Assembly (NCBI GenBank): GCA_947594925.1
Contig: CANQEJ010000001.1
Span: 7,837-71,836 of the forward strand
DNA from: an uncultured Bacilli bacterium
GTDB lineage: Bacteria; Bacillota_I; Bacilli_A; RF39; UBA660
Direction: 5' to 3'
Length of the DNA: 64,000 nt
This document shows positions 5,429-60,915 of this stretch, one piece after another. Position 1 is the stretch's first letter, and each line of letters opens with the position of its first letter. Under the pieces are notes generated by a model, which was not told where the DNA came from, did not search any database, and saw nothing but the letters and a program-made list of their open reading frames with translations. The translations under genes and the position numbers were made by a program.

Positions 5429-6031
5429 ATGAAAAAGAAATTTCTAGATTATGCCATGCAACAAATACAAACTAATAATACATATGACGAAATAAAATTA
5501 GAAGAATTAAGATATGGACTTGAAACATTTTATATGTTAGTAACTAAATTATTAGTTTCAATTTTAATTGCTATTATTTTAGGAATTTTTAAAGAATTTG
5601 TGCTTTTTCTAATATTCTACACTCCCTTGCGTAGTTTAGGATTTGGCTTTCATGCAAAAAATAGTTTAGAGTGTTGGATCATAAGCATACCTTTATTTAT
5701 ATTAATTCCATTAGGAATAAAATATTTAAATTTTAACCTGTTATTAATTCAAATATGTTTAATTTTAAGTACTATTTCATTTTTGTTTTTTGCTCCCGCA
5801 GACACGAAGAATAAACCACTAATTAATAGCAAAAAAAGATTACTAAATAAAAGTATTTTAGTAATCGTCAGTATTATATATTTAATAATTACTATTTTTA
5901 TTAAACAAAATTTAGTCTTAAATGCTATCTTTTTTGCAAGTATTTGGCAAGCAATATGTGTAAATCCTTTGACGTACAAATTATTTGGTCAGCCTTTTAA
6001 TAATTATAAAACTTATTTAACAGAGGTTTAA
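5429..6031 (+). CDS. agrB: AgrB-family membrane peptidase that processes the AgrD propeptide
   Basis: Polytopic membrane protein; the catalytic pair is conserved in FHAKNSLECW (His then Cys seven residues later, as in S. aureus HAPSSFWC); FAPADTKNKP matches AgrB YAPAATKKKP. Confidence 0.85.
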   Translation: MKKKFLDYAMQQIQTNNTYDEIKLEELRYGLETFYMLVTKLLVSILIAIILGIFKEFVLFLIFYTPLRSLGFGFHAKNSLECWIISIPLFILIPLGIKYLNFNLLLIQICLILSTISFLFFAPADTKNKPLINSKKRLLNKSILVIVSIIYLIITIFIKQNLVLNAIFFASIWQAICVNPLTYKLFGQPFNNYKTYLTEV

Positions 6032-6081
6032 ATATATTAATATAAATTTAAACAAAATTTTTAAAAAGGAGGTATAGTTAC

Positions 6082-6195
6082 ATGTTTTCAAGTATTTTAG
6101 CCAGTATTGGTGAACTTTTCTCAAAAAGTGCCACTAGCTTTAGTTGGTTTTGGTATCATGATGAAACTAAATGTCCAAAATCTTTAATTAAATAA
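6082..6195 (+). CDS. agrD: AgrD-like autoinducing-peptide precursor (37 aa); absent from the supplied ORF track
   Basis: ATG at 6082 lies 10 nt after the ribosome-binding site AAAGGAGG; sequence MFSSILASIGELFSKSATSFSWFWYHDETKCPKSLIK has an amphipathic leader, an aromatic core and a charged PKSL tail; it sits directly after agrB. Confidence 0.65.
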   Translation: MFSSILASIGELFSKSATSFSWFWYHDETKCPKSLIK

Positions 6196-7467
6196 TTACG
6201 AAGAAATAATTAGTTTAATTGTTACAATAAATAAATTACTAATTATTTCTTTTTTTGTTTTTATATTATTATCAGATATTTTATTAATGTAATCTAGTCC
6301 TATTCCACTTTTAATCTTCTTTGTAGAATATTGCTTAGTACCTATTTTATTTATATCTAAGGTATCATTAAATGTATTAATTATCTTAATATCTATATCC
6401 TTTCCGTTTTGAACTATATTAATAAATAAACATTTTTCTTTAGTTTTTAAAGTGGCTTCAATCGCATTATCTAATGAGATGCCAACTATATCACATAACT
6501 TTGAATACAATTTCTTGTTAATTTTATTAAATGTATCAAAATTAACTGTACTTTTTATATCAAAATTAATATTTTTATTATTAATTGTATTCATTTTATA
6601 AAAAATTAAACCTTGCAAACCCTTTGGAATATTAGTCATTTTGATAACAATATTGTATTCAGAATTATACTTTTTCAGTTTTTCTTCAATTAATTCTCTA
6701 ACATCAGAATCAACATAAGTTTTAATTGCTGCCAAGTCATTATTTAAATTATGTCTAAGAGTACTATAATCTTCAGCAATTTGTTCATAAGCCTTTATAT
6801 TCTTTAATAATACTTCATTTTCCATTGATATTCTTTGTTTTTTCAAAAACATATTTAAAATAATTAAAATCATCGCCATTATCGAGATAATAGAAACTAT
6901 AATAACAAAAAATATTTTATAATCTTTATAATTTTCTCCATACACTATTGTAAACAAATTAATTATGATAATTACTATTCCAAATAACATTTCGATATTT
7001 AATCTATCTTTAATTTTATTATTGATTTTAAAAATAACATTATGCAAAAGTAACACTAACAAATATAAAACACTCGCAAATATAATTGTAATTATTGTTT
7101 TATACCAATAATTATCATTTACTATAGTTATATTAGAAGAAATTAATGATAATAATCCCGCAAAGACGAACTCTACAAATATAGAAACAACTGAAATCAT
7201 AAGTGTTATCAATATAGTATCAGATATTTCCTTTTTATAAATAATTTTAAACTCTATAATTATTAAAGATAAAGTACAGAAGATTCTAAAAAAATTATTA
7301 AAATATAAATTTGTAAACATACTGATAGTAGATAATATTAGGATTAATAAAAAATTTGTAATTTTTTTATTATTTGACACACTAGACGTGCATTTTTTAA
7401 AACATAATGTATGAATTATATAAGAATAAATTTCGCTCATGTATCCTAGAATTAATTCAATAGTCAT
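6196..7467 (-). CDS. agrC: AgrC-like sensor histidine kinase (polytopic N-terminus, C-terminal GHKL ATPase domain)
   Basis: About six transmembrane segments, then a His-kinase core with G-box (GIGLDYINKIS); its stop overlaps the start of the upstream LytTR regulator. Confidence 0.7.
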   Translation of the reverse strand: MTIELILGYMSEIYSYIIHTLCFKKCTSSVSNNKKITNFLLILILSTISMFTNLYFNNFFRIFCTLSLIIIEFKIIYKKEISDTILITLMISVVSIFVEFVFAGLLSLISSNITIVNDNYWYKTIITIIFASVLYLLVLLLHNVIFKINNKIKDRLNIEMLFGIVIIIINLFTIVYGENYKDYKIFFVIIVSIISIMAMILIILNMFLKKQRISMENEVLLKNIKAYEQIAEDYSTLRHNLNNDLAAIKTYVDSDVRELIEEKLKKYNSEYNIVIKMTNIPKGLQGLIFYKMNTINNKNINFDIKSTVNFDTFNKINKKLYSKLCDIVGISLDNAIEATLKTKEKCLFINIVQNGKDIDIKIINTFNDTLDINKIGTKQYSTKKIKSGIGLDYINKISDNNIKTKKEIISNLFIVTIKLIISS

Positions 7468-8168
7468 ACTACCTCTTCCTTATATTTTTTAGATAATAAA
7501 CTAATTTCTTCATTATTATCTAATAAAATCTTCCCGTTTTTCCAATCATATCTACTTACTCTATCTGTATTAACAATACAAGAACGATGCGTTTTCTTAA
7601 AACGACTATCTAACTCTTTTAAAACTTCACTAAATGTCATATTAATTTTAAAAACATTTTTAGTTGTCTTAATAATTAACTTTCGTTCATCTTTGTCTCG
7701 ACAAATATATAAAATATCTTTCATATAAATACGTAAATTAATTTGATTGTTTCGATATTTAAATACCTTATTATCTACTTTTTTACTTAAAATTAAATTT
7801 AAACAATCACTTAATCTTTTTTCCATATCATCAAATTTTTCAATAAACTTAAATACTTTTAAAACATTATTATAAACTTTTTGTTCATAACTTGTGTGAT
7901 TAGTTAAAAATATAATTTCACTATCCCAATCATTTTCTCTGATTTTTAAAGCAATATTAATACCCGTTATTTTACTTTTCAAACATATATCTAAAATATA
8001 AATTTTTCTTTCAGACAAATCTTCTATCTCTTTTAATAAACCATCATCACATTTATTAAAAAATAGCAATTTTATTGGTTCTTCATATTTAAATAAAAAA
8101 GGACTAATAATACTCTGAGTTTTAAGTTTTTCTTTTTCTTCATCTTCGACAACAATAATTTTTGTCAT
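7464..8168 (-). CDS. agrA: LytTR-family response regulator (AgrA-like)
   Basis: Receiver domain (MTKIIVVEDEE...) plus a C-terminal LytTR DNA-binding domain; start moved to the ATG at 8166-8168 behind an AAGGGAG ribosome-binding site. Confidence 0.8.
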   Translation of the reverse strand: MTKIIVVEDEEKEKLKTQSIISPFLFKYEEPIKLLFFNKCDDGLLKEIEDLSERKIYILDICLKSKITGINIALKIRENDWDSEIIFLTNHTSYEQKVYNNVLKVFKFIEKFDDMEKRLSDCLNLILSKKVDNKVFKYRNNQINLRIYMKDILYICRDKDERKLIIKTTKNVFKINMTFSEVLKELDSRFKKTHRSCIVNTDRVSRYDWKNGKILLDNNEEISLLSKKYKEEVV

Positions 8169-8238
8169 TAGTTCAACTCCCTTTATATTTAAATGATTAT
8201 AACACATTTTCTCTATTAGCAAAATAAAAATAATAGTT

Positions 8239-19072: not shown

Positions 19073-19100
19073 AAAGATACTAATTTACCGTAGTATCTTT
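19073..19100. terminator. Bidirectional hairpin shared by the convergent PBP and noc genes
   Basis: Perfect 10 bp stem AAAGATACTA / TAGTATCTTT with an 8 nt loop, flanked by an A-tract and a T-tract; it overlaps the last codons of noc. Confidence 0.45.
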
Positions 19101-20411
19101 ATTAATTTTTATAATTATTTGATATTCATTATCTAAATCAACTTCTTCACTATCCACATTAAAGCCCTTTTCTTTTAGAATATCAATGACATCTCTAGCT
19201 TCATTAATTGCACTTTTTAAATCTAGACCTGCTGCTTCTTTTTGTTTTTCCTCATAGTTAGGGTCTAATAAATCAACTTGGTCCATTGGGTCAAATAAAG
19301 TCTCTAGTTTTGGCTCATTAGCACTAGGTGCTGGAGTTAAATCAATAACTGGTTTATCACTATTTGGGGTTGGAACTGGTGTAGGAGCTGGTTGTGGAGC
19401 AACATTGAAGAATTTATTTTCCTCTTGTACCTGACCATTAGGTATAGGATTTTGAATTGGTTGATTATTTATAGGTTGATTACTTATAGGAGGTGTTTGA
19501 TTTATATTATTTGGCATCGTATTTGGCATAGCAGTTGGACTACTATTAAATATCGCTGTATCTCCTGTTAAAGTATTCATATTAGCAGATTCATCTTCTA
19601 AAAAATTAAAGAACTTATTTTGTGGTTTATCACCGGGAGCAGTTTCCGTAGTTGGTTTCGGTGGCTCTGGTCTTGGTGCTTGATTATCAAAGTTAAAAAA
19701 GGTATTATTAACCGGGTCATTAACCGGAGCAATATCAGTGGCATTATCTCTTATATTATCCACATCTTGAGTTATAGTTACCAAAGGTATTCCATCATTT
19801 GTATTCATTTGATCCTTTTTTATTTCGACATCTAACTGTCTTACAGTTAACCTTTCATTTATAATTTTTGCTAGCCACTCTTTTTGCTTTTCTTTATTAT
19901 TCACCGCAAGTAAACTGCGCGCATGTCTTTCGGAAATCTGGCCATTTAATAAAGCTTGTTGTACAGATTCATCTAGATTTAATAAACGTAATTTATTAGC
20001 AATAGCTGGTTGAGATACACCCATTTTCTTGGCTAATTGTTCTTGAGTTAGATATCCTTTATCTAAAATATTTTTATAACTTCGTGCTTCTTCGATAGCA
20101 GTTAAATCTTTTCTTTGGACGTTTTCAACTAAAGCTACCTCCGCACTAGTTTGGTCATCTATATTAGATATAATTGCTGGTACAGTAGTAAGTCCTGCCA
20201 TTCCGGCGGCACGATAACGACGTTCTCCGGCAATTATTTCATATTTAGCACCCATCTTACGTAATACTAATGGCTGAATTATTCCGTGTTGTTTAATAGA
20301 TTCTGAAAGTTCTAATAATTCTTGTTCATCAAAATTAACACGTGGTTGAAATTGATTAGGAATAATATCAGTTAGAGCTATTTGTAAAACTTCTTGATTT
20401 GTATTATTCAT
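19080..20411 (-). CDS. noc: ParB-family protein, Noc-like (nucleoid occlusion), with a long Pro/Asn/Gln-rich C-terminal extension
   Basis: ParB N-terminal domain (IPNQFQPR...IAGERR); HTH region GVSQPAIANKLRLL...ISERHARSLLAVNNKEKQ resembles B. subtilis Noc as recalled; lies immediately downstream of rsmG, the Noc position in Bacilli. Confidence 0.7.
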   Translation of the reverse strand: MNNTNQEVLQIALTDIIPNQFQPRVNFDEQELLELSESIKQHGIIQPLVLRKMGAKYEIIAGERRYRAAGMAGLTTVPAIISNIDDQTSAEVALVENVQRKDLTAIEEARSYKNILDKGYLTQEQLAKKMGVSQPAIANKLRLLNLDESVQQALLNGQISERHARSLLAVNNKEKQKEWLAKIINERLTVRQLDVEIKKDQMNTNDGIPLVTITQDVDNIRDNATDIAPVNDPVNNTFFNFDNQAPRPEPPKPTTETAPGDKPQNKFFNFLEDESANMNTLTGDTAIFNSSPTAMPNTMPNNINQTPPISNQPINNQPIQNPIPNGQVQEENKFFNVAPQPAPTPVPTPNSDKPVIDLTPAPSANEPKLETLFDPMDQVDLLDPNYEEKQKEAAGLDLKSAINEARDVIDILKEKGFNVDSEEVDLDNEYQIIIKINKDTTVN

Positions 20412-20465
20412 ACTAAATGCCCCTTTTTATTTTATTCTATAATTTATTTTAGCAATTTTTCCATT

Positions 20466-21176
20466 TTATTTCAATGGTTTCTTTTTTATTTTATCATAAC
20501 TTCTTGGATATTCTTTTGGGGTTGGTCCTTCTTTTCTTATTTTAATAATTGTTCTTTCGGAATTTTCCTTTGGTAATAAAAATTTAATTACTTGTTCTTC
20601 TTTACCTTGTAAAATTTGTAAAGATTTTTGGATATTAATATTTTCATCTTTACCTTTTAAAGCTATAAAATAACCATTAACTTTAACAAAAGGCAAACAT
20701 AGTTCTAATAAAATATCTAAGCTAGCTACAGCTCGAGCTGTCACTAAATCATACTCTTCTCTTGTTTTTAAGGCATACTCTTCACAACGACCATGAATTA
20801 AATTAACATCTTTCAATTCTAAAGTTTTAACAACTTCATTTAAAAACAAAATCTTTTTATTATTAGCATCGATAATATCTAATTTTAAATGAGGAAAACA
20901 AATTTTTAAAACTATTCCCGGAAATCCTGCGCCACTTCCGACATCTAAAACATTTTCTACATGAGTTAAATCTAGAGCTTTAACAATAGTTAAACTATCG
21001 TAAAAATGTTTTAAATAAACGTCTTCTTCTTTTATAATGGCGGTTAAGTTCATTTTCTGGTTCCAAAAAACTAACAATTCATAATAAGTATGTAATTGTT
21101 CTTTTTGCTTTGATGTTAGAATAATATTTAATTTTTCTATTTCCTTATTAAATTCTTCTTTATTCATTTTTTCCAT
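20466..21176 (-). CDS. rsmG: 16S rRNA m7G527 methyltransferase RsmG (GidB)
   Basis: SAM methyltransferase fold with GSGAGFPG motif; synteny with mnmG. Confidence 0.9.
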   Translation of the reverse strand: MEKMNKEEFNKEIEKLNIILTSKQKEQLHTYYELLVFWNQKMNLTAIIKEEDVYLKHFYDSLTIVKALDLTHVENVLDVGSGAGFPGIVLKICFPHLKLDIIDANNKKILFLNEVVKTLELKDVNLIHGRCEEYALKTREEYDLVTARAVASLDILLELCLPFVKVNGYFIALKGKDENINIQKSLQILQGKEEQVIKFLLPKENSERTIIKIRKEGPTPKEYPRSYDKIKKKPLK

Positions 21177-27791: not shown

Positions 27792-28044
27792 TGTGCATAA
27801 ATATTTTCTTTTTAACGAAAATACTTGCTATTAACACCTTTTTAAGAATAATCCACAATATTATTAACAACTAAAACTTGGTAAATACTAATTTTTTTTT
27901 ATTTATTAACAATTAAGAATAAAATTGTGCATAAAGTTATAAATAATGTTTATATAATTTTCAAAAAAATTTGTGGATAATGTTGATAAGTGTCTTTTTT
28001 TCAGTTATTATAGAACATAAACTTGTTTATAAGTATGTGGATAA
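27792..28044. promoter_or_regulatory. oriC upstream DnaA-box cluster and dnaA promoter region
   Basis: Perfect TGTGGATAA boxes at 27972-27980 and 28036-28044; one-mismatch boxes at 27792-27800, 27849-27857, 27926-27934 and 27981-27989. Confidence 0.75.
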
Positions 28045-29480: not shown

Positions 29481-29611
29481 TAAATAATAAATTATCCACA
29501 TTTAATAGACAATGAAATTTAATAAAATAATAAGGAATAACCACTTAATATAAAGTTATCAACATTATGAACACTATTATTAATATTATTTAAAAGAAAG
29601 AAGGAATATAT
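29481..29611. promoter_or_regulatory. oriC downstream part: DnaA boxes and an AT-rich candidate unwinding region between dnaA and dnaN
   Basis: Perfect TTATCCACA at 29492-29500; TTATCAACA at 29556-29564; the surrounding sequence is extremely AT-rich. Confidence 0.6.
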
Positions 29612-30875: not shown

Positions 30876-31334
30876 ATGCTAAATTATAGAATTAATGAAG
30901 AAACATTAGCTATATTTCCATATCATAAGAAAAGTAAGGTTTATGAAAATAGAAAAAGTTTTATAGTTAATGAAAGTGCTTATAGTATTATTGAAGATAG
31001 TTGTAAATATTTTGGTAGTTCTTTTGAAGGGCGCAAAAAAGGATCTGTATTCTTAACAGGTATTACTTATAAAACCCCAATTATTATTGAAGAAACTAAG
31101 GAAATTATCTTTTTTCCTACAACATCACCCAGAAGAAATTATTGTTCTTGGATATCTTTAAATAACTTAGAAAATTATTATGAAGAGAAGGGAAAAATCA
31201 AATTAGTTTTTAATAATAAAAAAGAAATTCTATTAGATGTTTCATATGGAGTAATTAATAATCAAGTTTTAAGGGCTTCAAGACTAGAATCTACTTTAAG
31301 AAAAAGTAAGAAAAATAAAGAAAAAATTCAATAA
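30876..31334 (+). CDS. comK: ComK-family competence transcription factor
   Basis: YFGSSFEGRKKGS, PIIIEETKEIIFFPTTSPRRNYCSWIS and VSYGVINNQVLRASRL align with B. subtilis ComK blocks FFGSSYAGRKAGT, PIMVDPSNQIFLFPTLSSTRPQCGWIS and ISYNSFENQVYRTAWL. Confidence 0.75.
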   Translation: MLNYRINEETLAIFPYHKKSKVYENRKSFIVNESAYSIIEDSCKYFGSSFEGRKKGSVFLTGITYKTPIIIEETKEIIFFPTTSPRRNYCSWISLNNLENYYEEKGKIKLVFNNKKEILLDVSYGVINNQVLRASRLESTLRKSKKNKEKIQ

Positions 31335-34487: not shown

Positions 34488-36935
34488 ATGGATAAAATAG
34501 TTGAAAATAATATTGAAAATGAAGTAAAAACTTGTTTCTTAAATTATTCCATGAGCGTTATTGTAGCCCGTGCCTTACCAGATTTACGTGATGGTTTAAA
34601 ACCTGTACATCGTCGTATTTTATATTCAATGTATGAATCTGGATATACACCTGACAAACCTCATAAAAAGAGTGCGAGAATTGTCGGAGACGTTATGGGT
34701 AAATATCATCCACACGGCGACTCTTCAATTTATGATGCTATGGTTCGTATGGCTCAGACTTTTAGTTTTAGACATGTTTTAGTTGATGGTCATGGAAATT
34801 TTGGTAACTTAGATGGTGATGGAGCGGCTGCTTACCGTTATACCGAAGCGCGTTTATCAAAATTATCTTTGGAAATGGTTCGTGATATTAATAAGAATAC
34901 TGTTGATTTTATTCCAAACTTTGATGAAAGTGAACAAGAACCAGAAATATTACCAAGTAGATTTCCTAATATTTTAGTAAATGGAACAATGGGAATAGCA
35001 GTTGGTATGGCCACAAATATTCCTCCTCATAACTTAGGTGAGGTTATAGATGGATGTGTTGCTTACATTGATAATCCTGATATTGATACTGATGGTTTAA
35101 TGCAACATATTAAAGGACCAGATTTTCCTACCGGAGCTGTTATTTTAGGAAACAGTGGAATTAAAAAAGCTTATGAAACTGGCCGTGGTAGTATAACTAT
35201 TCGTGGTAAAGTAGAAATAGATGAAAGTGGAAATAAAACAAGAATAATAGTTAATGAACTTCCTTATCAAGTAAATAAAGCGGAATTCCAATCTCGTATT
35301 GGCCAACTTGTAAGAGATAAAATTATTGATGGTATTACAGATATTCATGAAGAATCAAATCTTGAAAATCCTGTCCGTGTTGTAATTTATCTTCGTAAAG
35401 ATGCTAATGCTAATGTTATTTTAAATAATTTATATAAACACACGCAATTACAAACATCATATGGTATAAATTTATTAATGTTAGACCAAAAACGTCCTAA
35501 AGTATTATCTCTAAAAGAAATTATTTCGAAATATATTGATTATCAAAAAGAAATTATTATTAGAAGAACTAAATTTGATTTAGAAAAAGCGGAAGCTCGT
35601 GTCCATATTTTAGATGGCTTAAAAATAGCTCTAGATAATCTAGATGAAGTTATTAAAATAATAAGAGGGTCAAATACGGATATTGAAGCGAAAGAGCAAT
35701 TAATTTCCCGTTTTGGTTTAGATGATGTTCAAGCTGATGCTATCTTAGAAATGCGTTTGCGTCGTTTAACTGGCTTAGAACGTGATAAAATCGAAAAAGA
35801 ATTAGCAGAATTAATGGCCAGTATTGCTGAATATCATGCAATTTTAGCTAGTGAAGAAAGAATTCTTGGTATTATTAAAGATGAATTAATTGAAATCAAG
35901 AATAAATATGCTGATGAAAGACGTACCGATATTGACATGACAGCTATTGAATATATTGAAGATGAATCTTTAATACCTGTGGAAAACATTATGGTAGCTT
36001 TAACTAATAAAGGATATATAAAACGTACACCTGTTGATAACTTCCGTTCTCAAAATAGAGGAGGAATAGGTGTAAAGGGTATGTCAACTAACGATGAAGA
36101 TTTTGTCGAACATTTGATTAATTTATCTACTCATGATTACGTATTATTCTTTACAAACAAAGGAAAAGTCTATCGTCTAAAAGGATACGAAATTCCTGAA
36201 TTTAGTCGTCAATCTAAGGGATTACCGATAATTAATCTTTTACAAATAGAAAAAGATGAAATGATTTCTTCCGTTATTGCAATTAATTCTGAAGAAGATG
36301 TTAGTTACTTACTATTTGTTACTAAGAACGGTTTAGTTAAGAAGACAAAAGTTGAAGAATTTGATAAAATAAGAAATACTGGTAAGATATGTATTAATCT
36401 TAAAGATACTGATGAATTAATCTCTGTTAAAAAAACGACGGGTAATGAATATATTCTTCTTGGTTCTAACTTAGGACGTATGGTTAAATTTAATGAAAAT
36501 GAAGTTAGAGTAATGGGCCGTACCGCCAGTGGAGTAAAAGGAATTAATTTAAATGGTGGCAAATGTGTAGGTGCAGAAATTGTTACTGATGATAAAGAGA
36601 TTTTAATTGTAACCGAAAAAGGTTATGGAAAGAAAACAGCTATTTCTGAATATAGAGAAACTAAACGTGGCAGCAAGGGTGTTAAAGCTCTAAATATTAC
36701 TGATAAAAATGGAACTATCTCGGCATTGAAATTAGTAGAAGAAAATAAAGATTTAATGATAGTTACTAATAGTGGTATTATTATGAGAATGCCATTAGAC
36801 CAAATATCTACACTAGGAAGAGTTACTCAAGGAGTTCGCCTAATCAATTTAAAAGACAATCAGGAAGTAGCTACAATTAGTTTAGTTGATAAAGAAGAAC
36901 AAGATGTTTCACGTGAAACATTAGATGAAGAATAA
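34488..36935 (+). CDS. gyrA: DNA gyrase subunit A
   Basis: Active-site region [11 protein letters not shown]; GyrA-box in the C-terminal beta-pinwheel; the last codons contain parS copy 1. Confidence 0.97.
36904..36921. promoter_or_regulatory. parS: parS site, copy 1 (ATGTTTCACGTGAAACAT; the 16 bp core TGTTTCACGTGAAACA matches the parS consensus perfectly)
   Basis: Perfect 18 bp palindrome read directly from the sequence; lies inside the gyrA 3' end. Confidence 0.8.
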
Positions 36936-36942
36936 TAATAAA

Positions 36943-36975
36943 AAAAGAAGACTATAAAAGTAGTTTTCTTTTTTT
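36943..36975 (+). terminator. gyrA terminator hairpin
   Basis: Stem AGAAGACTA / TAGTTTTCT (one G-U pair) followed by a T-run; sits between parS copies 1 and 2. Confidence 0.4.
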
Positions 36976-36993
36976 ATGTTTCACGTGAAACAT
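36976..36993. promoter_or_regulatory. parS: parS site, copy 2 (perfect 18 bp palindrome)
   Basis: Identical 18-mer, intergenic. Confidence 0.8.
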
Positions 36994-37066
36994 TGATAAT
37001 TATTTTAAATTTATTTGCTAGTGTACCGTAATTTTGTTTTAATTAATATAGAAAGTAGGTAATAAT

Positions 37067-37966
37067 ATGTTTTATCGAATATTCAAATTAAAGAGAACCC
37101 CACTATGGAATATTATTTCTTTATTACTTTTATTTATTAGCGTTTACGCAACCTCCAAAGCGGAATTTCAATTATTTAAAATCTTAATTTTTTTAGCTTT
37201 AATAGTTAGTTTAATTCCTATAATAAAAATATTGCTTAAAGAAAATCCTAAAGATGGATATATTTATTCTCCCATAGTAATTGATAATAATAGTAATATT
37301 TATTTATTAAAAGAAAAAATAAATGTTATAACAATCGCATTACCAATAGTTTTATTATTTATATTAATTACTGGTGATTATACTAATGCTTTATTATTTG
37401 ATTATATAGTAATGATTTTCCCCTTATTTATTGATATAAATGATTTATTTAGAATATTAAATGAAAATAGACTAGCTAAAAATGAAGATTCATTAATTAA
37501 ATTAATCCAAAAAGGGCGAAATATATTTTATAATGTGTCTAAAGTAAATAGTTTAAAGAAAGAGAATTTTAAGTTTAAAATAGATAATAATCCTAAATTA
37601 GTTAGCTTATCCTTTAATTATGAAAATTATGAAGAATTATTATTAAAATTAAACTATGTTTCACGTGAAACATTGGAAGATAAACCAGAAATTAATAATA
37701 GTAATAATCCAGGTGAACAAAACATTTTTACTCAAATGCCTAATATTACAGTGCCTCAAGAAGTTCCTCAAACTGTAACTGTTCCTGAAAATAATGTCCT
37801 AAATAGTAATAATAGTAATAATAGTAATAATACTTCAATTGCTAATCAAGAACCAAATCAAAATATAAACAGTCCTGTTGATAACTCGAATAATTCCAAT
37901 AACAATAACGATGTTTCACGTGAAACATCAACTAATTCATCAGACATATTTAACAATTTTAAATAA
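37067..37966 (+). CDS. Hypothetical membrane protein with an Asn/Ser-rich low-complexity C-terminus; contains parS copies 3 and 4
   Basis: 299 aa ORF with several predicted transmembrane segments in the N-terminal half; no family recognised. Confidence 0.45.
   Translation: MFYRIFKLKRTPLWNIISLLLLFISVYATSKAEFQLFKILIFLALIVSLIPIIKILLKENPKDGYIYSPIVIDNNSNIYLLKEKINVITIALPIVLLFILITGDYTNALLFDYIVMIFPLFIDINDLFRILNENRLAKNEDSLIKLIQKGRNIFYNVSKVNSLKKENFKFKIDNNPKLVSLSFNYENYEELLLKLNYVSRETLEDKPEINNSNNPGEQNIFTQMPNITVPQEVPQTVTVPENNVLNSNNSNNSNNTSIANQEPNQNINSPVDNSNNSNNNNDVSRETSTNSSDIFNNFK
37656..37673. promoter_or_regulatory. parS: parS site, copy 3 (perfect 18 bp palindrome)
   Basis: Identical 18-mer inside the ORF 37067-37966. 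Confidence 0.8.
37802..37832 (+). repeat. Tandem 9 bp repeat (AATAGTAAT) x3.4 encoding an NSN run
   Basis: Read directly; in-frame within the ORF 37067-37966. Confidence 0.5.
37911..37928. promoter_or_regulatory. parS: parS site, copy 4 (perfect 18 bp palindrome)
   Basis: Identical 18-mer near the 3' end of the ORF 37067-37966. Confidence 0.8.
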
Positions 37967-37983
37967 TGTTTCACGTGAAACAT
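37966..37983. promoter_or_regulatory. parS: parS site, copy 5 (perfect 18 bp palindrome)
   Basis: Identical 18-mer starting at the last base of the ORF's stop codon. Confidence 0.8.
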
Positions 37984-38026
37984 CAAAAAAGTTGTTAAAT
38001 AAATTATTTTTTGATAGTATCTATAT

Positions 38027-38105
38027 GTGCAACAAATATATTGTAAACTGGTCAGAATCGGAAGATAGCAGCCACGTCAATCCCTGTTTGTGTGCACTTT
38101 TTTAT
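38027..38105 (+). ncRNA. ffs: Small (4.5S-type) signal recognition particle RNA
   Basis: GGTCAGAATCGGAAGATAGCAGCCACG matches the conserved SRP RNA domain IV (E. coli GGUCAGGUCCGGAAGGAAGCAGCCAAGG); a closing helix GTGCAACAAA...TTTGTGTGCAC is followed by a T-run. Confidence 0.55.
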
Positions 38106-38119
38106 TTAGGAGTTTTTCT

Positions 38120-38539
38120 ATGAAAGATAAATATATGTTAAATTGTTTGAATTATGCTTTAAAAAAAGTGGATAACGATGAATTACCTATTGCAGCTCTG
38201 TTGATAAAAGATAATAAAATAGTTTGTAAAAGTGTGAATAATAAAAACTTAAAAAACAATGTTTTAGGACATGCTGAGATTAGGTGTATCCAAAAAGCTA
38301 GTAAAAAACTAAAACGTTGGAACTTAAGCGACTGTGAATTATATGTTACCTTAAAACCATGTGAGATGTGTGAATTAGTCATCAAAGAATCACGAATAAA
38401 ATCAACATATTACTTATTAGATAGATTAGAGACAAAAAAAGTATATCAAAAGAGCCAATTTATACCTATTACGGGTATGGAAAAAGAAAAAAAACAATAT
38501 CAAGAAAAATTAAAAAAATTCTTTGAAAATAAGAGATAA
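38120..38539 (+). CDS. tadA: tRNA-specific adenosine deaminase (TadA-like, CDA fold)
   Basis: HAE...PCEMC zinc-binding motifs; located before dnaX as in B. subtilis; start at the ATG at 38120 behind an AGGAG ribosome-binding site. Confidence 0.75.
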   Translation: MKDKYMLNCLNYALKKVDNDELPIAALLIKDNKIVCKSVNNKNLKNNVLGHAEIRCIQKASKKLKRWNLSDCELYVTLKPCEMCELVIKESRIKSTYYLLDRLETKKVYQKSQFIPITGMEKEKKQYQEKLKKFFENKR

Positions 38540-38589: not shown

Positions 38590-40209
38590 ATGGATTATAA
38601 AGTATTATATCGTAAATACCGACCGCTAACTTTTGATGATGTGACAGGTCAGGGGGCTGTTGTTAAAACATTAAAAAATGCTATTATGCAACAAAAAATA
38701 TCACATGCTTATATCTTTACTGGTCCAAGAGGGACAGGCAAAACATCGCTAGCTAAAATCTTTGCTAGAAGCATAAACTGTGAGAATTGTCAAGATGGAA
38801 ACCCTTGTATGACATGTGAAATGTGTAAATCGTTTAATGATAATCCCGATATTATTGAAATTGATGCAGCATCTAATAATGGTGTTGATGAAATAAGAGA
38901 GTTAATTAATAATATAAAACTTGCTCCAAGCAATTCTAAATATAAAGTATATATAATAGATGAAGTGCATATGCTATCGCAAAGTGCTTTCAATGCTCTG
39001 TTATTAACTTTAGAAGAACCTCCTGCCCATGTTGTATTTATCTTAGCTACAACGGATATTCAAAACGTGCCAATAACAATTCTTTCTAGAACGCAGCGTT
39101 TTGATTTTACAAGGATATCTCCTTCGGATATAGAAAAAAGGTTAGCTTATGTATGTGAACAAGAAAACATCAAAATTACATCAGAAGCTCTTTCAGAAAT
39201 AGCTTATTTAGCTGAGGGTGGATTAAGAGATGCCTTAAGTATTTTAGACCAGTTAGCTTCGCAAACTGTTGATGAAATAACAATAGATACAGTATTAAAT
39301 ACCTTTGGAACAATATCAACGGCGAAAATTGCTGAGTTTATTAATACAATTGAAAATAATGATATCCAAGGTATGTTAGAAATATTACAGGAATTTAAAA
39401 ATTCGAGCATTGATAGCAAGGTGTTTATAAATAAATTATTAAATGCTTTAAAGGATTTAGCATTTGACATTAAAACTAGTAAAGTCGAAGAAAAAAACTT
39501 GACTTTTGAAGATATCAAAAAATTAATTCTAGAATTAAATGATACTCTTTCTAATAAACTTATGAGTGTCGACCCTTATATTTTAATTGAGATGATTGTC
39601 TTAAGCTATATGGGTAAACAAGAAACACCTGATATTTTAGAAAAAACCGCAGAATATTTCCCGGGAAATAGTGAAGAAGATAAAAAAACTCCCGAAAAAG
39701 TCATAAATGAACCAAAAAAAGAAGAAAAAAATACTGTAAATGATACAAAATTAGAAGAATTTAAAAAAATTAGAATTAATAACTGTTTGGCAGCTGCTCA
39801 AAAAAGTTTCTTAATTGATTTAAAAAACAAATGGCAAGAATTTATAAAATTTATTAAAACTGTGGATAACAATATATACTTAAATATTTGTGATACCAAT
39901 TTAATTGTTTCTTCAGATTGTTATTTTATAATTGAAACAATAACTGATAGCTCAGCAGGTTTAATTAATATTAGTACAGAAAAGATAGAAGAATATTTTA
40001 ATAAGCAGTATAATTTAAAATATAAAATAATTGCTGTTAATAGCGATGAGTGGAATATTATAAAGAAGCAATATATAAATGACTTAAATAATCATATAAA
40101 ATATGAAATAAAGGAAGAAGTTCCATTGTATATTGAAAATAAAGAAGATATTGAAAATATAGCAGGGGATATTTTTGATAAAAATAAAATAGAAATAGTA
40201 AAGGAATAA
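38590..40209 (+). CDS. dnaX: DNA polymerase III subunits gamma/tau
   Basis: Walker A GPRGTGKTS; zinc module CENCQDGNPCMTCEMC; SRT sensor motif. Confidence 0.95.
   Translation: MDYKVLYRKYRPLTFDDVTGQGAVVKTLKNAIMQQKISHAYIFTGPRGTGKTSLAKIFARSINCENCQDGNPCMTCEMCKSFNDNPDIIEIDAASNNGVDEIRELINNIKLAPSNSKYKVYIIDEVHMLSQSAFNALLLTLEEPPAHVVFILATTDIQNVPITILSRTQRFDFTRISPSDIEKRLAYVCEQENIKITSEALSEIAYLAEGGLRDALSILDQLASQTVDEITIDTVLNTFGTISTAKIAEFINTIENNDIQGMLEILQEFKNSSIDSKVFINKLLNALKDLAFDIKTSKVEEKNLTFEDIKKLILELNDTLSNKLMSVDPYILIEMIVLSYMGKQETPDILEKTAEYFPGNSEEDKKTPEKVINEPKKEEKNTVNDTKLEEFKKIRINNCLAAAQKSFLIDLKNKWQEFIKFIKTVDNNIYLNICDTNLIVSSDCYFIIETITDSSAGLINISTEKIEEYFNKQYNLKYKIIAVNSDEWNIIKKQYINDLNNHIKYEIKEEVPLYIENKEDIENIAGDIFDKNKIEIVKE
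39656..39669. promoter_or_regulatory. Noc-binding-site-like palindrome ATTTCCCGGGAAAT (perfect match to the B. subtilis NBS consensus), inside dnaX
   Basis: Read directly from the sequence; a GC-rich 14-mer in an AT-rich genome. Confidence 0.55.
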
Positions 40210-40520: not shown

Positions 40521-41125
40521 TGATATATCCTGATGATTTAAATTTTGCTATCGAGAATTTCAAAAAAATTCCGGGCGTTGGTGAAAAGAGTGCAGAAAGA
40601 CAAGTTCTATCTATCTTAAAATTATCTGAAGAAGAAGTAACTGATTTTGCTAATAGTTTAATAAATGCTAAAAAAAGATTACACCCTTGCGAAATATGTG
40701 GAAACTTAACTAGTAATGACATATGTGATATCTGCGCCAATGAAAAACGTGATAAAAATCTAATTTGTATTCTAGAAGATTTCAAAAGTTTAGTGGCTTT
40801 TGAAAAATCTGGAAACTTCACCGGAACATATCATGTATTAAATGGCTTAATTTCGCCAATTGATGACCGAGGCCCTGAAGATATCAATTTAGCAAGTCTT
40901 CTCAAACGAATTGAAAATGTCGATGATTGTGAAATAATTATAGCTTTAAAATCAAGTGTTGAGGGAGAAGCTACCACGATGTTCATAAATAAGATTGTCA
41001 AAAATAAAAATGTTAAAATATCTCGCTTGCCATACGGAATTCCTATGGGAGCTGATATAGATTATCTTGACCCAATTTCTCTTGATAAAGCTTTAAAAGA
41101 CCGAAAAATTATATCAGAAGAATAA
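40520..41125 (+). CDS. recR: Recombination protein RecR
   Basis: C4 zinc finger CEICGNLTSNDICDIC; Toprim domain. Confidence 0.95.
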   Translation: MIYPDDLNFAIENFKKIPGVGEKSAERQVLSILKLSEEEVTDFANSLINAKKRLHPCEICGNLTSNDICDICANEKRDKNLICILEDFKSLVAFEKSGNFTGTYHVLNGLISPIDDRGPEDINLASLLKRIENVDDCEIIIALKSSVEGEATTMFINKIVKNKNVKISRLPYGIPMGADIDYLDPISLDKALKDRKIISEE

Positions 41126-41138
41126 TTTCCCGGGAAAT
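41125..41138. promoter_or_regulatory. Noc-binding-site-like palindrome ATTTCCCGGGAAAT (perfect), starting at the last base of the recR stop codon
   Basis: Read directly from the sequence. Confidence 0.55.
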
Positions 41139-41189
41139 AAAGTTCTAAATAATCTCGACATGCATAAGATTTCCAATAAGGAGATACTT

Positions 41190-48923: not shown

Positions 48924-50123
48924 TCATTTTTCATTTAGTAACCAATCAACAACATTTATTTTTTTAATTCCATTATAATCTGTAGCTAAATCATTGTCTA
49001 AAGTTAAAATTGTTTTTGGATAATAATCATTAGTATTTTCTAGTGGTCTTAATTCTCTTTTTAAAGTATCTTCATCTCTTACCGATAAAGCAACTTGATA
49101 ATATTCTATACCCTCATGATTTTGGACAATAAAGTCAATTTCATATTTATCTACTTTACCAATATAAACTTGGTAACCGCGACGTAATAACTCTAAATAA
49201 ACTATATTTTCTAATACATGCCCACTTTGAGCATTAGCTTTATTGCCTAAAAGAGCATATCTTAAGCCCGCATCGCAAACATAATATTTAAAATCGCGAG
49301 ACAAGTATCTTTTTCCTTTAATTTCATATCTTTCTATTTTATAAATAAGAAAACTTTCTAAAAAGGCATTAATATAATTTTCAACAGTATGACTACTTAT
49401 AGTAATATGATTAGAATTTAAAGTATCACTAATCTTTTTAATTGATATAGGACTACCAATACTATCAAAAATAAATTTTATAATACTCTCTAAAAGAATT
49501 TTATCATTTATATTATTTCTAGTCATTATATCTTTATAAACTATAGTAGAAAAAATACCATCTAAATAATCTCTTAAATTTTCTTCATTGTCATTAAATT
49601 CAATAGTTCCGGGCATGCCACCATTTTGCATATAGTCTAAAAATAATTCTTGTTTATTAGTAGACTTCGGAAAAGCACTAGCATATTCTTTAAAAGATAA
49701 GGGAAGCATTTTAATTTCGATATATCTTCCTGAAAGAAAAGTGGCTAATTCTCCTGATAAAAGATAAGCATTTGAACCAGTTATATATAAATCAACATTT
49801 TCCTTAATATAAAGCCCATCAACAGCTTTTTCAAAATTTTTAATATTTTGAATTTCATCTAAAAAAATATAGTACTTTTTATTATCTTTTAATTTTTTAT
49901 TTATATAATTATATAATTCTAAATAATCTTTAAAATTATATTCAGGGTCTTCTAAGTTTAATTTGATAATTTGAGTATCTTTGATATTTATCGATTTTAA
50001 ATAATCAATATATAAATTAAATAATGTAGATTTCCCACATCTTCTAATACCTGTTATGACTTTAATAATATTCTTATCTTTTAAGGATATTAATTTATTT
50101 AAATATGTATCTCTTGCTATCAT
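48924..50123 (-). CDS. AAA+ ATPase of the DUF4143 / COG1373 type
   Basis: Walker A GIRRCGKST; Walker B IFLDEIQ; C-terminal DUF4143-like region. Confidence 0.7.
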   Translation of the reverse strand: MIARDTYLNKLISLKDKNIIKVITGIRRCGKSTLFNLYIDYLKSINIKDTQIIKLNLEDPEYNFKDYLELYNYINKKLKDNKKYYIFLDEIQNIKNFEKAVDGLYIKENVDLYITGSNAYLLSGELATFLSGRYIEIKMLPLSFKEYASAFPKSTNKQELFLDYMQNGGMPGTIEFNDNEENLRDYLDGIFSTIVYKDIMTRNNINDKILLESIIKFIFDSIGSPISIKKISDTLNSNHITISSHTVENYINAFLESFLIYKIERYEIKGKRYLSRDFKYYVCDAGLRYALLGNKANAQSGHVLENIVYLELLRRGYQVYIGKVDKYEIDFIVQNHEGIEYYQVALSVRDEDTLKRELRPLENTNDYYPKTILTLDNDLATDYNGIKKINVVDWLLNEK

Positions 50124-59049: not shown

Positions 59050-60915
59050 ATGAAAAAAGAATTTAAAGCAGAATCAAAAAGATTAATGGAGTTAATGATT
59101 AATTCAATATATACTAATAAAGAAATATTTTTAAGAGAAATAATTTCTAATGCTTCTGATGCTATTGATAAATTACATTATAAATCATTAACTGATAGAA
59201 AGATTAAAGTTAAAAAAGATGATTTTGCCATTTTTGTTAATATTGATAAAGATAAAAGAACCCTAACTATTAGTGATAATGGTATAGGTATGAATAAAGA
59301 GGAGTTAGAAACTAATTTAGGAACTATTGCCAAGAGTGGTTCATTTGATTTTAAAAATGATAATAAGAAAAAAGAAAATATAGATATCATTGGTCAATTT
59401 GGTGTTGGTTTCTATTCAGCGTTTATGGTTTCTTCGCAAGTAGAAGTTATATCTAAAGCTTTTGGTAGTGATGAAGCTTATAGTTGGGTATCAAGTGGTA
59501 TTGATGGCTATACAATAAAAAAATGTGAAAAAGAAAATTATGGTACAGATATAATTTTAACTATCAAAGATGATGATAAAGAATATGACCAATATTTAGA
59601 AGAATATAATATTAAAAGTTTAATTAAAAAATATTCTGATTATATTACTTATCCAATTAAGATGGAAGTTACCAAAACTAAAGAAAAAGAAGGAAAAGAA
59701 AACGAATTTGAAGAATATAAAGAAATAGAAGTGATTAATAGTTTAGTTCCTTTATGGAAAAGAAATAAAAAAGATATTAAACAAGAAGATTATGATACTT
59801 TCTATTCTGATAAATTCTTTGATTATGAAAAACCCTTGGCACAGATACATACAGCAGCTGAAGGGACAATTGAATACAACTCTTTAATCTATATTCCTTC
59901 TCATGCTTCTTATGATTATTACTCTAAAGATTATGAAAAAGGTTTACAATTATATTCTAATGGGGTCTTAATCATGGAAAAATGTGCTGATTTAGTTCCT
60001 GATTACTTTAGCTTTGTTAAAGGAGTAGTAGATTCTCCAGATTTATCTTTAAATATCTCACGTGAAACTTTACAACAAAATCGTGTCTTAAAAACTATTG
60101 CTACCAATATTGAAAAAAGAATAAAATCTGAGCTTTTAGAAATGCAAGAGAAAAAAGAAGTTGATTACTTAAAATTCTGGGAAGCTTTTGGTATGCAAAT
60201 TAAAGTTGGGGTTTATAACGATTTTGGTATGAACAAAGAGAAATTACAAGATTTATTAATGTTTTATTCTTCCAAAGAAGAAAAACTTATTACACTAGCT
60301 GATTATGTCAAACGTCATAAAGATTATAAAGATATTTATTATGCTTGTGGAAATACAACAGAACAAATTGCTATGCTTCCTCAAGTAGAAGCTGTTATTG
60401 AACATGATAAAGAAGTCTTATTCTGTACAGATTATGTTGATGAATTTGTTTTAAAAACATTAATGAAATACGATGATAAAGAATTTAAAAATGTTTGCTC
60501 AGATAATATAGATTTAGATACAGAAGAGGAAAAAGAAGCTTTAAATAAATTAAATGAAAAATCTAAAGATATGTTAAATTTAATTAAAGATACAATAGCT
60601 GTTAAAGATGTTAAATTCACAAACAAGTTAAAAAATCATCCTGTTTGTTTAACCTCTGCAGGCGAAATATCTGTAGAGATGGAAAAAGTCATGAAACAGA
60701 TGCCAACCGCTGAAAATATCAATGCTGAAAAAATTCTAGAAATTAATGAAAACCACCCAATTGCTAAAAAATTACAAAATCTATATAAAAAAGATAAAGA
60801 AGAATTAAAAGCATATAGTAAAGTCTTATATGCCCAAGCCAGATTGATAGAAGGACTTCCTGTTGAAAATCCGACAGAAATTACTAATTTAATATGTGAT
60901 ATGTTATCTAAATAA
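59050..60915 (+). CDS. htpG: Chaperone HtpG (Hsp90)
   Basis: GHKL N-domain IISNASDAIDK; start at ATG 59050 behind AGGAGG. Confidence 0.95.
   Translation: MKKEFKAESKRLMELMINSIYTNKEIFLREIISNASDAIDKLHYKSLTDRKIKVKKDDFAIFVNIDKDKRTLTISDNGIGMNKEELETNLGTIAKSGSFDFKNDNKKKENIDIIGQFGVGFYSAFMVSSQVEVISKAFGSDEAYSWVSSGIDGYTIKKCEKENYGTDIILTIKDDDKEYDQYLEEYNIKSLIKKYSDYITYPIKMEVTKTKEKEGKENEFEEYKEIEVINSLVPLWKRNKKDIKQEDYDTFYSDKFFDYEKPLAQIHTAAEGTIEYNSLIYIPSHASYDYYSKDYEKGLQLYSNGVLIMEKCADLVPDYFSFVKGVVDSPDLSLNISRETLQQNRVLKTIATNIEKRIKSELLEMQEKKEVDYLKFWEAFGMQIKVGVYNDFGMNKEKLQDLLMFYSSKEEKLITLADYVKRHKDYKDIYYACGNTTEQIAMLPQVEAVIEHDKEVLFCTDYVDEFVLKTLMKYDDKEFKNVCSDNIDLDTEEEKEALNKLNEKSKDMLNLIKDTIAVKDVKFTNKLKNHPVCLTSAGEISVEMEKVMKQMPTAENINAEKILEINENHPIAKKLQNLYKKDKEELKAYSKVLYAQARLIEGLPVENPTEITNLICDMLSK

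Follow-up and report, generated by a model that had tools for sequence, protein, structure and literature searches.

The parS site of Bacillus subtilis and its reader Spo0J, reportedly described by Lin and Grossman in 1998, provide the natural point of comparison for an array of five identical palindromes in the origin region of an uncultured Bacilli bacterium (contig CANQEJ010000001.1; the whole 64-kilobase (kb) stretch analysed, contig positions 7,837 to 71,836, is hereafter called the window). The B. subtilis sites are built on the same 16-bp palindrome, tGTTNCACGTGAAACa, are also origin-proximal and are also tolerated in coding sequence, the copy inside spo0J being read as the peptide VPRET where those described here are read as VSRET. 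In B. subtilis, however, the sites are dispersed across hundreds of kb, several of them being imperfect, whereas here five perfect copies fall within 1.1 kb at one locus; furthermore, soj-spo0J stands beside noc in B. subtilis, which is not so in the origin regions of the present clade. Further points of comparison are Staphylococcus aureus, which has noc beside rsmG and spo0J elsewhere, and Streptococcus pneumoniae: both likewise have no ParA/Soj (for the present clade this holds for the origin region), and their ParB-parS systems are presumed to act through SMC. For both of those species the gene for ParB has been identified and the binding of its product tested, whereas no cognate ParB gene was located in the origin regions covered here. 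ParB-parS-SMC systems without ParA have precedent in species possessing Noc as well (PMC7142367; PMC7333895). The number of parS sites near the origin ranges from 1 to about 23, with up to 20-23 in Streptomyces coelicolor and Listeria innocua, and Caulobacter, Pseudomonas and Corynebacterium have small parS clusters that lie near oriC, as here, and vary in copy number between relatives (PMC7333895). Compared with these known clustered arrays, the one described here is distinguished by its very high density (clade-wide, 4.6 sites per kb of spacer), its confinement to a single spacer between gyrA and ffs/tadA, and a tandem turnover that is visible in one relative (locus L068). Origin-proximal parS arrays are long established, and the present array is real, conserved and ordinary in kind.

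An exact recount of the 18-mer ATGTTTCACGTGAAACAT recovered the same five copies listed in the first-pass annotation of this DNA, at 36904, 36976, 37656, 37911 and 37966, and no others in the entire window. The 18-mer was matched in none of 100 dinucleotide-preserving shuffles of the window (chance expectation 0), and a search with its 16-bp core at up to two mismatches gave no further match, the nearest being a single three-mismatch match at 60054. All five copies are perfect matches to TGTTTCACGTGAAACA. The canonical parS consensus is a 16-bp inverted repeat (Jalal 2020, PMC7383237), and the shared core is identical to it at 16 of 16 positions, as had been claimed. Homology between the copies stops at the edges of the 18-mer, beyond which the flanks are merely AT-rich.

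Examination of the individual copies reveals that they occupy both coding and intergenic DNA. The first (36904-36921) lies inside the 3' end of gyrA (34488-36935, plus strand; Pfam DNA_topoisoIV and DNA_gyraseA_C), where it forms part of the final codons and is read as D-V-S-R-E-T; a parS site likewise occurs 27-64 bp before the gyrA stop in five relatives (L004, L006, L008, L019 and L022; the L008 locus is taken from contig DAJPHG010000001.1, 1.19 Mb). The second (36976-36993) starts at the 3' foot of an intrinsic-terminator-like hairpin of gyrA (36938-36977, plus strand), an inverted repeat with 17-nt arms at 36938-36954 and 36961-36977 and a 6-nt loop, followed by a T-run; thus, these two copies do flank the gyrA terminator, as originally noted. 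The third (37656-37673) and fourth (37911-37928) are both translated as VSRET within an orphan open reading frame (ORF) of 299 codons, hereafter ORF299 (37067-37966, plus strand), and the fifth (37966-37983) shares its first base with the end of the ORF299 stop codon and precedes the signal recognition particle (SRP) RNA gene by 33 bp. The first-pass annotation had mentioned the VSRET reading for the two copies inside ORF299 only, which is correct as far as it goes and is to be extended to the copy in gyrA. This shared reading in all three coding copies is to be expected, because only two frames of the palindrome are stop-free (VSRET and MFHVKH), the third containing TGA.

To place these sites in an evolutionary context, related origin regions were collected by a DnaA scan with one genome kept per species, which yielded 80 loci from metagenome-assembled genomes of uncultured gut Bacilli; these genomes carry the labels Bacilli, Tenericutes or 'Mycoplasma sp. 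CAG:776', were sampled from rabbits, mice, chickens and humans, and have DnaA proteins 60-92% identical to that of the window. All 49 sequences that reach the 3' end of gyrA (48 relatives and the window) have parS-type sites between the end of gyrA and tadA/ffs. The distribution of the sites is almost exclusive to this spacer: in 81 origin regions totalling 1.33 Mb, 165 of 166 parS-type sites fall within its combined 36 kb and one in the remaining 1.29 Mb, an enrichment of about 5,900-fold over the surroundings. The spacer itself varies from 155 to 1446 bp in length, and the only 12-mers common to the spacers of at least 40 of 46 genomes trace back to either parS or the SRP RNA. Among the parS-type sites 118 are perfect 16-mers, and an A at position -1 and a T at position +1 are kept at 162 of 165 sites, indicating that the unit under selection is the 18-bp site. 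The persistence of the sites amid diverged surroundings shows purifying selection on what would be a protein-binding site held at a fixed chromosomal address. Such conservation would be expected of a centromere or loading site, and the initial centromere-like (parS) reading of the array is strongly supported by it, both through the 49 of 49 spacers and through the extent of the enrichment.

The location relative to the origin of replication is equally consistent. The window covers the origin region of a Firmicute with 27% G+C: rnpA, yidC, jag, mnmE, mnmG, rsmG and one ParB-family gene lie on the minus strand to the left of oriC, and dnaA, dnaN, comK, recF, gyrB and gyrA on the plus strand to its right. 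The origin is bipartite, with a cluster of DnaA boxes upstream of dnaA (27792-28044, the left half) and further boxes between dnaA and dnaN (29492-29564, the right half), and the GC skew changes sign at about 27-28 kb. Both features put the array about 7-9 kb to the right of oriC (7.3-9 kb when measured from the clusters of DnaA boxes on either side of dnaA), in agreement with its earlier description as close to oriC. The description of the array as unusually dense and all-perfect, by contrast, survives in part. Five perfect copies are indeed present in 1.1 kb, but the density is overstated, because related genomes have 1-14 parS-type sites each (median 3) and published ranges reach 20-23 sites. 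Five sites are typical for the clade; the array is dense, though no different in kind.

These data also bear on the idea that the match to parS is incidental and the 18-mer is a dispersed repeat, an element forming a hairpin or terminator, or an operator bound by some unrelated regulator that recognizes CACGTG. On the minus strand one copy does score as resembling a terminator hairpin, and copies 2 and 5 are situated at gene ends. Against this, three of the five copies fall within ORFs, the flanks lack the homology that is seen in mobile repeats, the element is found nowhere else in the window and just once outside the spacer in the related origin regions, all 16 consensus positions are exact, and its exclusive place by oriC is kept down to 60% DnaA identity. 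We therefore consider an incidental match to be very unlikely.

While the motif persists, the arrays themselves turn over. In L068 (18990-19530) the spacer holds 13.5 tandem 40-bp units with 95% matches and one parS in each unit, and the whole has the appearance of a centromere array that was amplified recently. In L066 (19225-20242) there are instead nine copies of a variant altered at position 5, TGTTACACGTGTAACA, spaced at about 110 bp, and the 21 kb of this locus contain no canonical parS and no Noc-binding site (NBS); three further loci (L017, L020 and L024) use the variant TGTTCCACGTGGAACA. The Noc-like protein of L066, a member of the family discussed below, has V in place of Q at specificity position 173 and T at 184, and these changes in sites and reader may represent co-evolution. 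However, the L066 case is uninformative as a test of covariation with V173, as there is no alternative NBS-like palindrome in its 21 kb. The same turnover speaks to the notion that the sites are relics left behind by the loss of ParB and read by no protein. What favors this notion is that the cognate ParB was not located in the window, the 80 origin loci, the neighborhoods of the Noc-like genes or about 4 kb past the right window edge. Sites that no protein reads would be expected to decay, though, and yet the perfect 16-mers and the flanking A and T are retained in diverged surroundings, and new copies are still arising, as in the tandem array of L068; hence, a relic array has very little to commend it.

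The sole ParB-family gene in the window (19080-20411, minus strand), which adjoins rsmG, codes for a 443-aa Noc-like protein (starting MNNTNQEVLQ...) with the Pfam ParB_N and HTH_ParB domains. The residues at Caulobacter positions 173, 179, 184 and 201, which determine site specificity, are R-T-A-G in ParB and Q-K-K-R in Noc. An alignment with B. subtilis Spo0J and Noc reference sequences gives Q-K-N-R for the local protein, i.e. a match to Noc at three of the four positions, with N rather than the K of Noc at 184. Q173 and R201 are found in all 31 orthologues counted in the loci and in 259 of 259 parsable database homologues, K179 in all but one (which has L), and the N at position 184 is itself conserved in this family. 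In the published specificity analysis A at site position 1 is linked to Q173 and C at position 6 to R201, both being the NBS bases, position 184 is permissive, and R173 is invariable in parS-specific variants (Jalal 2020, PMC7383237); the QKNR variant is not listed in the accessible part of the supplements to that study. In common with the Noc proteins of Bacillus and Staphylococcus, the local protein has Q173, K179 and R201, the ERHAR motif, adjacency to rsmG and perfect NBS palindromes in its genome. It differs from Noc in having N at 184 and a long disordered linker, in scoring below the NCBIfam cutoff, and in the absence of an N-terminal amphipathic membrane-targeting helix, there being no extension before ParB_N. 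The linker is hypervariable across the family, in which total lengths range from 240 to 980 aa (homologues P0001-P0266), but it contains a conserved and often repeated motif, P-x-N-K-F-F-N-F-L-E-D, which occurs three times in the protein of the window. The N-terminal membrane-targeting sequence of B. subtilis Noc is SRFFGLGE; the NKFFNFLED portion of the linker motif resembles it and may be a relocated membrane-binding element.

The sites that such a protein would be expected to read are also present. A perfect NBS, TATTTCCCGGGAAATA, lies inside dnaX (39655-39670), and a second NBS (41124-41139), with a perfect 14-bp core ATTTCCCGGGAAAT beginning at 41125, lies at the recR stop. In the relatives NBS recur at conserved positions, one of them about 2.5 kb upstream of dnaA and others at distances of about 4 kb and, near dnaX, about 11 kb downstream of the dnaA start, and the window and related loci together contain 69 perfect NBS 16-mers. 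A census of all 16-mers of the pattern T-N-TT-N-C-N-C-G-N-G-N-AA-N-A in the same sequences separated them into 166 pure parS-type and 71 pure NBS-type sites, with no hybrid among the 237. The Noc/NBS system is thereby distinct from the five palindromes, and the strict separation of the two site classes argues for two separate readers. In light of its specificity residues, the 19080-20411 protein is predicted to be the reader of the NBS and not of parS. It is Noc-like in its DNA-reading head and gene position, without being a certified Noc equivalog; in this sense the earlier statement that the only ParB homologue here is Noc-like holds, supported by the Q-K-N-R residues and the two NBS of the window.

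Taken together with the conserved array, these observations lead us to propose that the five palindromes are most probably an origin-proximal parS centromere array, read by a canonical ParB/Spo0J encoded elsewhere on the chromosome. Several results weigh against this proposal. A tblastn search with the B. subtilis Spo0J sequence found no ParB of the R173 type in the window or within 10 kb on either side of dnaA in the 80 relatives, and the only gene matched in the window and the 80 origin loci was the Noc-like one. No R173-type ParB was found either in about 4 kb past the right window edge, as represented by same-species contigs of the European Nucleotide Archive, where the genes are veg, spoVG, yabP, yabQ and divIC, along with those of an ABC transporter and a transposase; the corresponding look-up at the left edge gave nothing. 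On contigs of 58-112 kb soj/spo0J was never seen beside the Noc-like orthologues, the order being rsmG, Noc-like gene and penicillin-binding protein gene. If the ancestral arrangement was rsmG-noc-soj-spo0J, the simplest route to rsmG-noc is a deletion of soj-spo0J, which leaves no canonical ParB. The local protein itself is 49% identical to B. subtilis Spo0J over its N-terminal 200 residues and 39% to Noc, and it scores 285.9 bits against the NCBIfam Noc model (TIGR04285), whose cutoff is 315. The same model gives B. subtilis Noc 373 and Spo0J 257 bits, placing the local protein only slightly above Spo0J; since the Noc-like protein and Spo0J are separated by only about 29 bits (286 against 257), the model was not used as a basis for classification. 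A HMMER search with the N-terminal half of the Noc-like protein against 1.84 billion representatives returned 150 matches, all of them from the QKxR family and at least 60% identical to the query, and for this reason it is uninformative on paralogues.

It is from these results that the most serious competing explanation is built, in which soj-spo0J has been lost and the single QKNR protein nucleates both on the parS array and on the scattered NBS, so merging centromere/SMC-loading and nucleoid occlusion functions. In its favor, the Noc-like gene is the sole ParB-family gene in every origin region examined, its product as a whole is closer to Spo0J than it is to the Noc of B. subtilis and falls short of the Noc equivalog cutoff, position 184 is a conserved N unlike the K of Noc, and the deletion that it invokes is the simplest way to the rsmG-noc arrangement. 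On the other hand, the deep mutational scan found R173 to be invariable among parS binders, and its dual-specificity variants mostly had T or S at position 201 and not R, a published landscape suggesting that a natural dual-specificity ParB/Noc state is avoided (Jalal 2020, PMC7383237). Moreover, a dual reader should tolerate hybrid sites (G1 with C6, or A1 with A6), which the census did not contain, and although the L066 protein has V173, its nine parS-type sites retain the parS-defining G1 and A6. Finally, since both kinds of site, parS and NBS, match those of B. subtilis exactly, the most parsimonious history is one in which the two readers were inherited. On balance, a single protein reading both classes of site appears unlikely, if clearly less so than an incidental or a relic array.

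With regard to ParA, a tblastn search with the B. subtilis Soj sequence found no match in the window, as had been reported, or in any of the 80 origin loci, and the 19080-20411 protein has no ParA-activating LG-R/K-GL peptide. Given the absence of ParA near the origin and of this N-terminal peptide from the local ParB-family protein, the parS system probably works without ParA, by analogy with S. pneumoniae and S. aureus. An S. aureus-type arrangement, with noc at rsmG, Spo0J elsewhere and no Soj, is the model with the best support. That a cognate ParB exists, where its gene lies and how the protein acts are our inferences. Under the proposed parS array model, dimers of a parS-specific ParB/Spo0J would nucleate on each of the five sites, bind cytidine triphosphate (CTP), close into clamps and slide onto the flanking DNA. 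The presence of several close sites would raise the loading rate and could produce a zone of dense ParB that covers gyrA, ffs and dnaX and lies about 8 kb from oriC. This zone could in turn recruit SMC-ScpAB, whereby the chromosome arms would be aligned and newly replicated sister origins separated, while the Noc paralogue next to rsmG would read the separate NBS.

Most of the spacer in the window is filled by ORF299, whose predicted product has a hydrophobic N-terminal half and an N/P/Q-rich tail. It has no match in Pfam or NCBIfam, no homologue was found in the 80 relatives, and a database of 5.8 billion proteins contains only copies that are at least 99% identical. A chance origin is unlikely, because the frame is so long in DNA of 26% G+C, and it is probably a young lineage-specific gene. 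As a species-specific orphan, it was rejected as a candidate for a conserved host gene or a reader of the sites, and it stands outside the conserved design of the spacer; most relatives have their parS sites between genes. In the close relative L004 an unrelated small membrane-protein ORF (19958-20569) occupies the same slot, and the start of its longest reading runs through a parS in the MFHVKH frame.

The right-hand anchor of the spacer is formed by the SRP RNA gene ffs (38016-38113, plus strand; Rfam RF00169, 53.4 bits) together with tadA. With its GTG start at 38090, the longest tadA ORF runs into the 3' end of this RNA gene, and the true start is likely to be the ATG at 38120, which is preceded by AGGAG. 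Several other features of the window were recorded. A ComK-family gene (30876-31334) sits between dnaN and recF, a slot that in Bacillus is usually taken by the small S4-like gene yaaA/rlbA. At the left window edge (213-1660) there is an AbiEii toxin/AbiEi antitoxin pair (type IV toxin-antitoxin/abortive infection), followed at 5429-8222 by an agr-like quorum-sensing module comprising AgrB (Pfam), a polytopic kinase-like protein with no Pfam match and a LytTR response regulator. Genes for AAA_14/DUF4143 ATPases are found in the window (48924-50123, minus strand) and in L085 (6175-7380 and 13957-15165), and their differing positions in the origin regions of the clade suggest a mobile or dispersed gene family.

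For the uncultured, reduced-genome gut Bacilli these results provide a clean annotation in which parS, the NBS and a Noc-type protein are told apart. The modest value added to what was already established consists of an address kept strictly between gyrA and ffs throughout a deep uncultured lineage, an array turnover that can be seen directly and the question of the identity of the reader. A larger payoff would follow only if it were true that no canonical ParB exists in these genomes, in which case a single reader would be a natural dual-specificity ParB/Noc that joins centromere and nucleoid-occlusion functions. The clade also offers a natural data set of parS arrays at one address, with copy numbers from 1 to 14, tandem amplification and a genome-wide base switch at position 5, which bears on the question, raised previously, of why parS sites cluster (PMC7333895).

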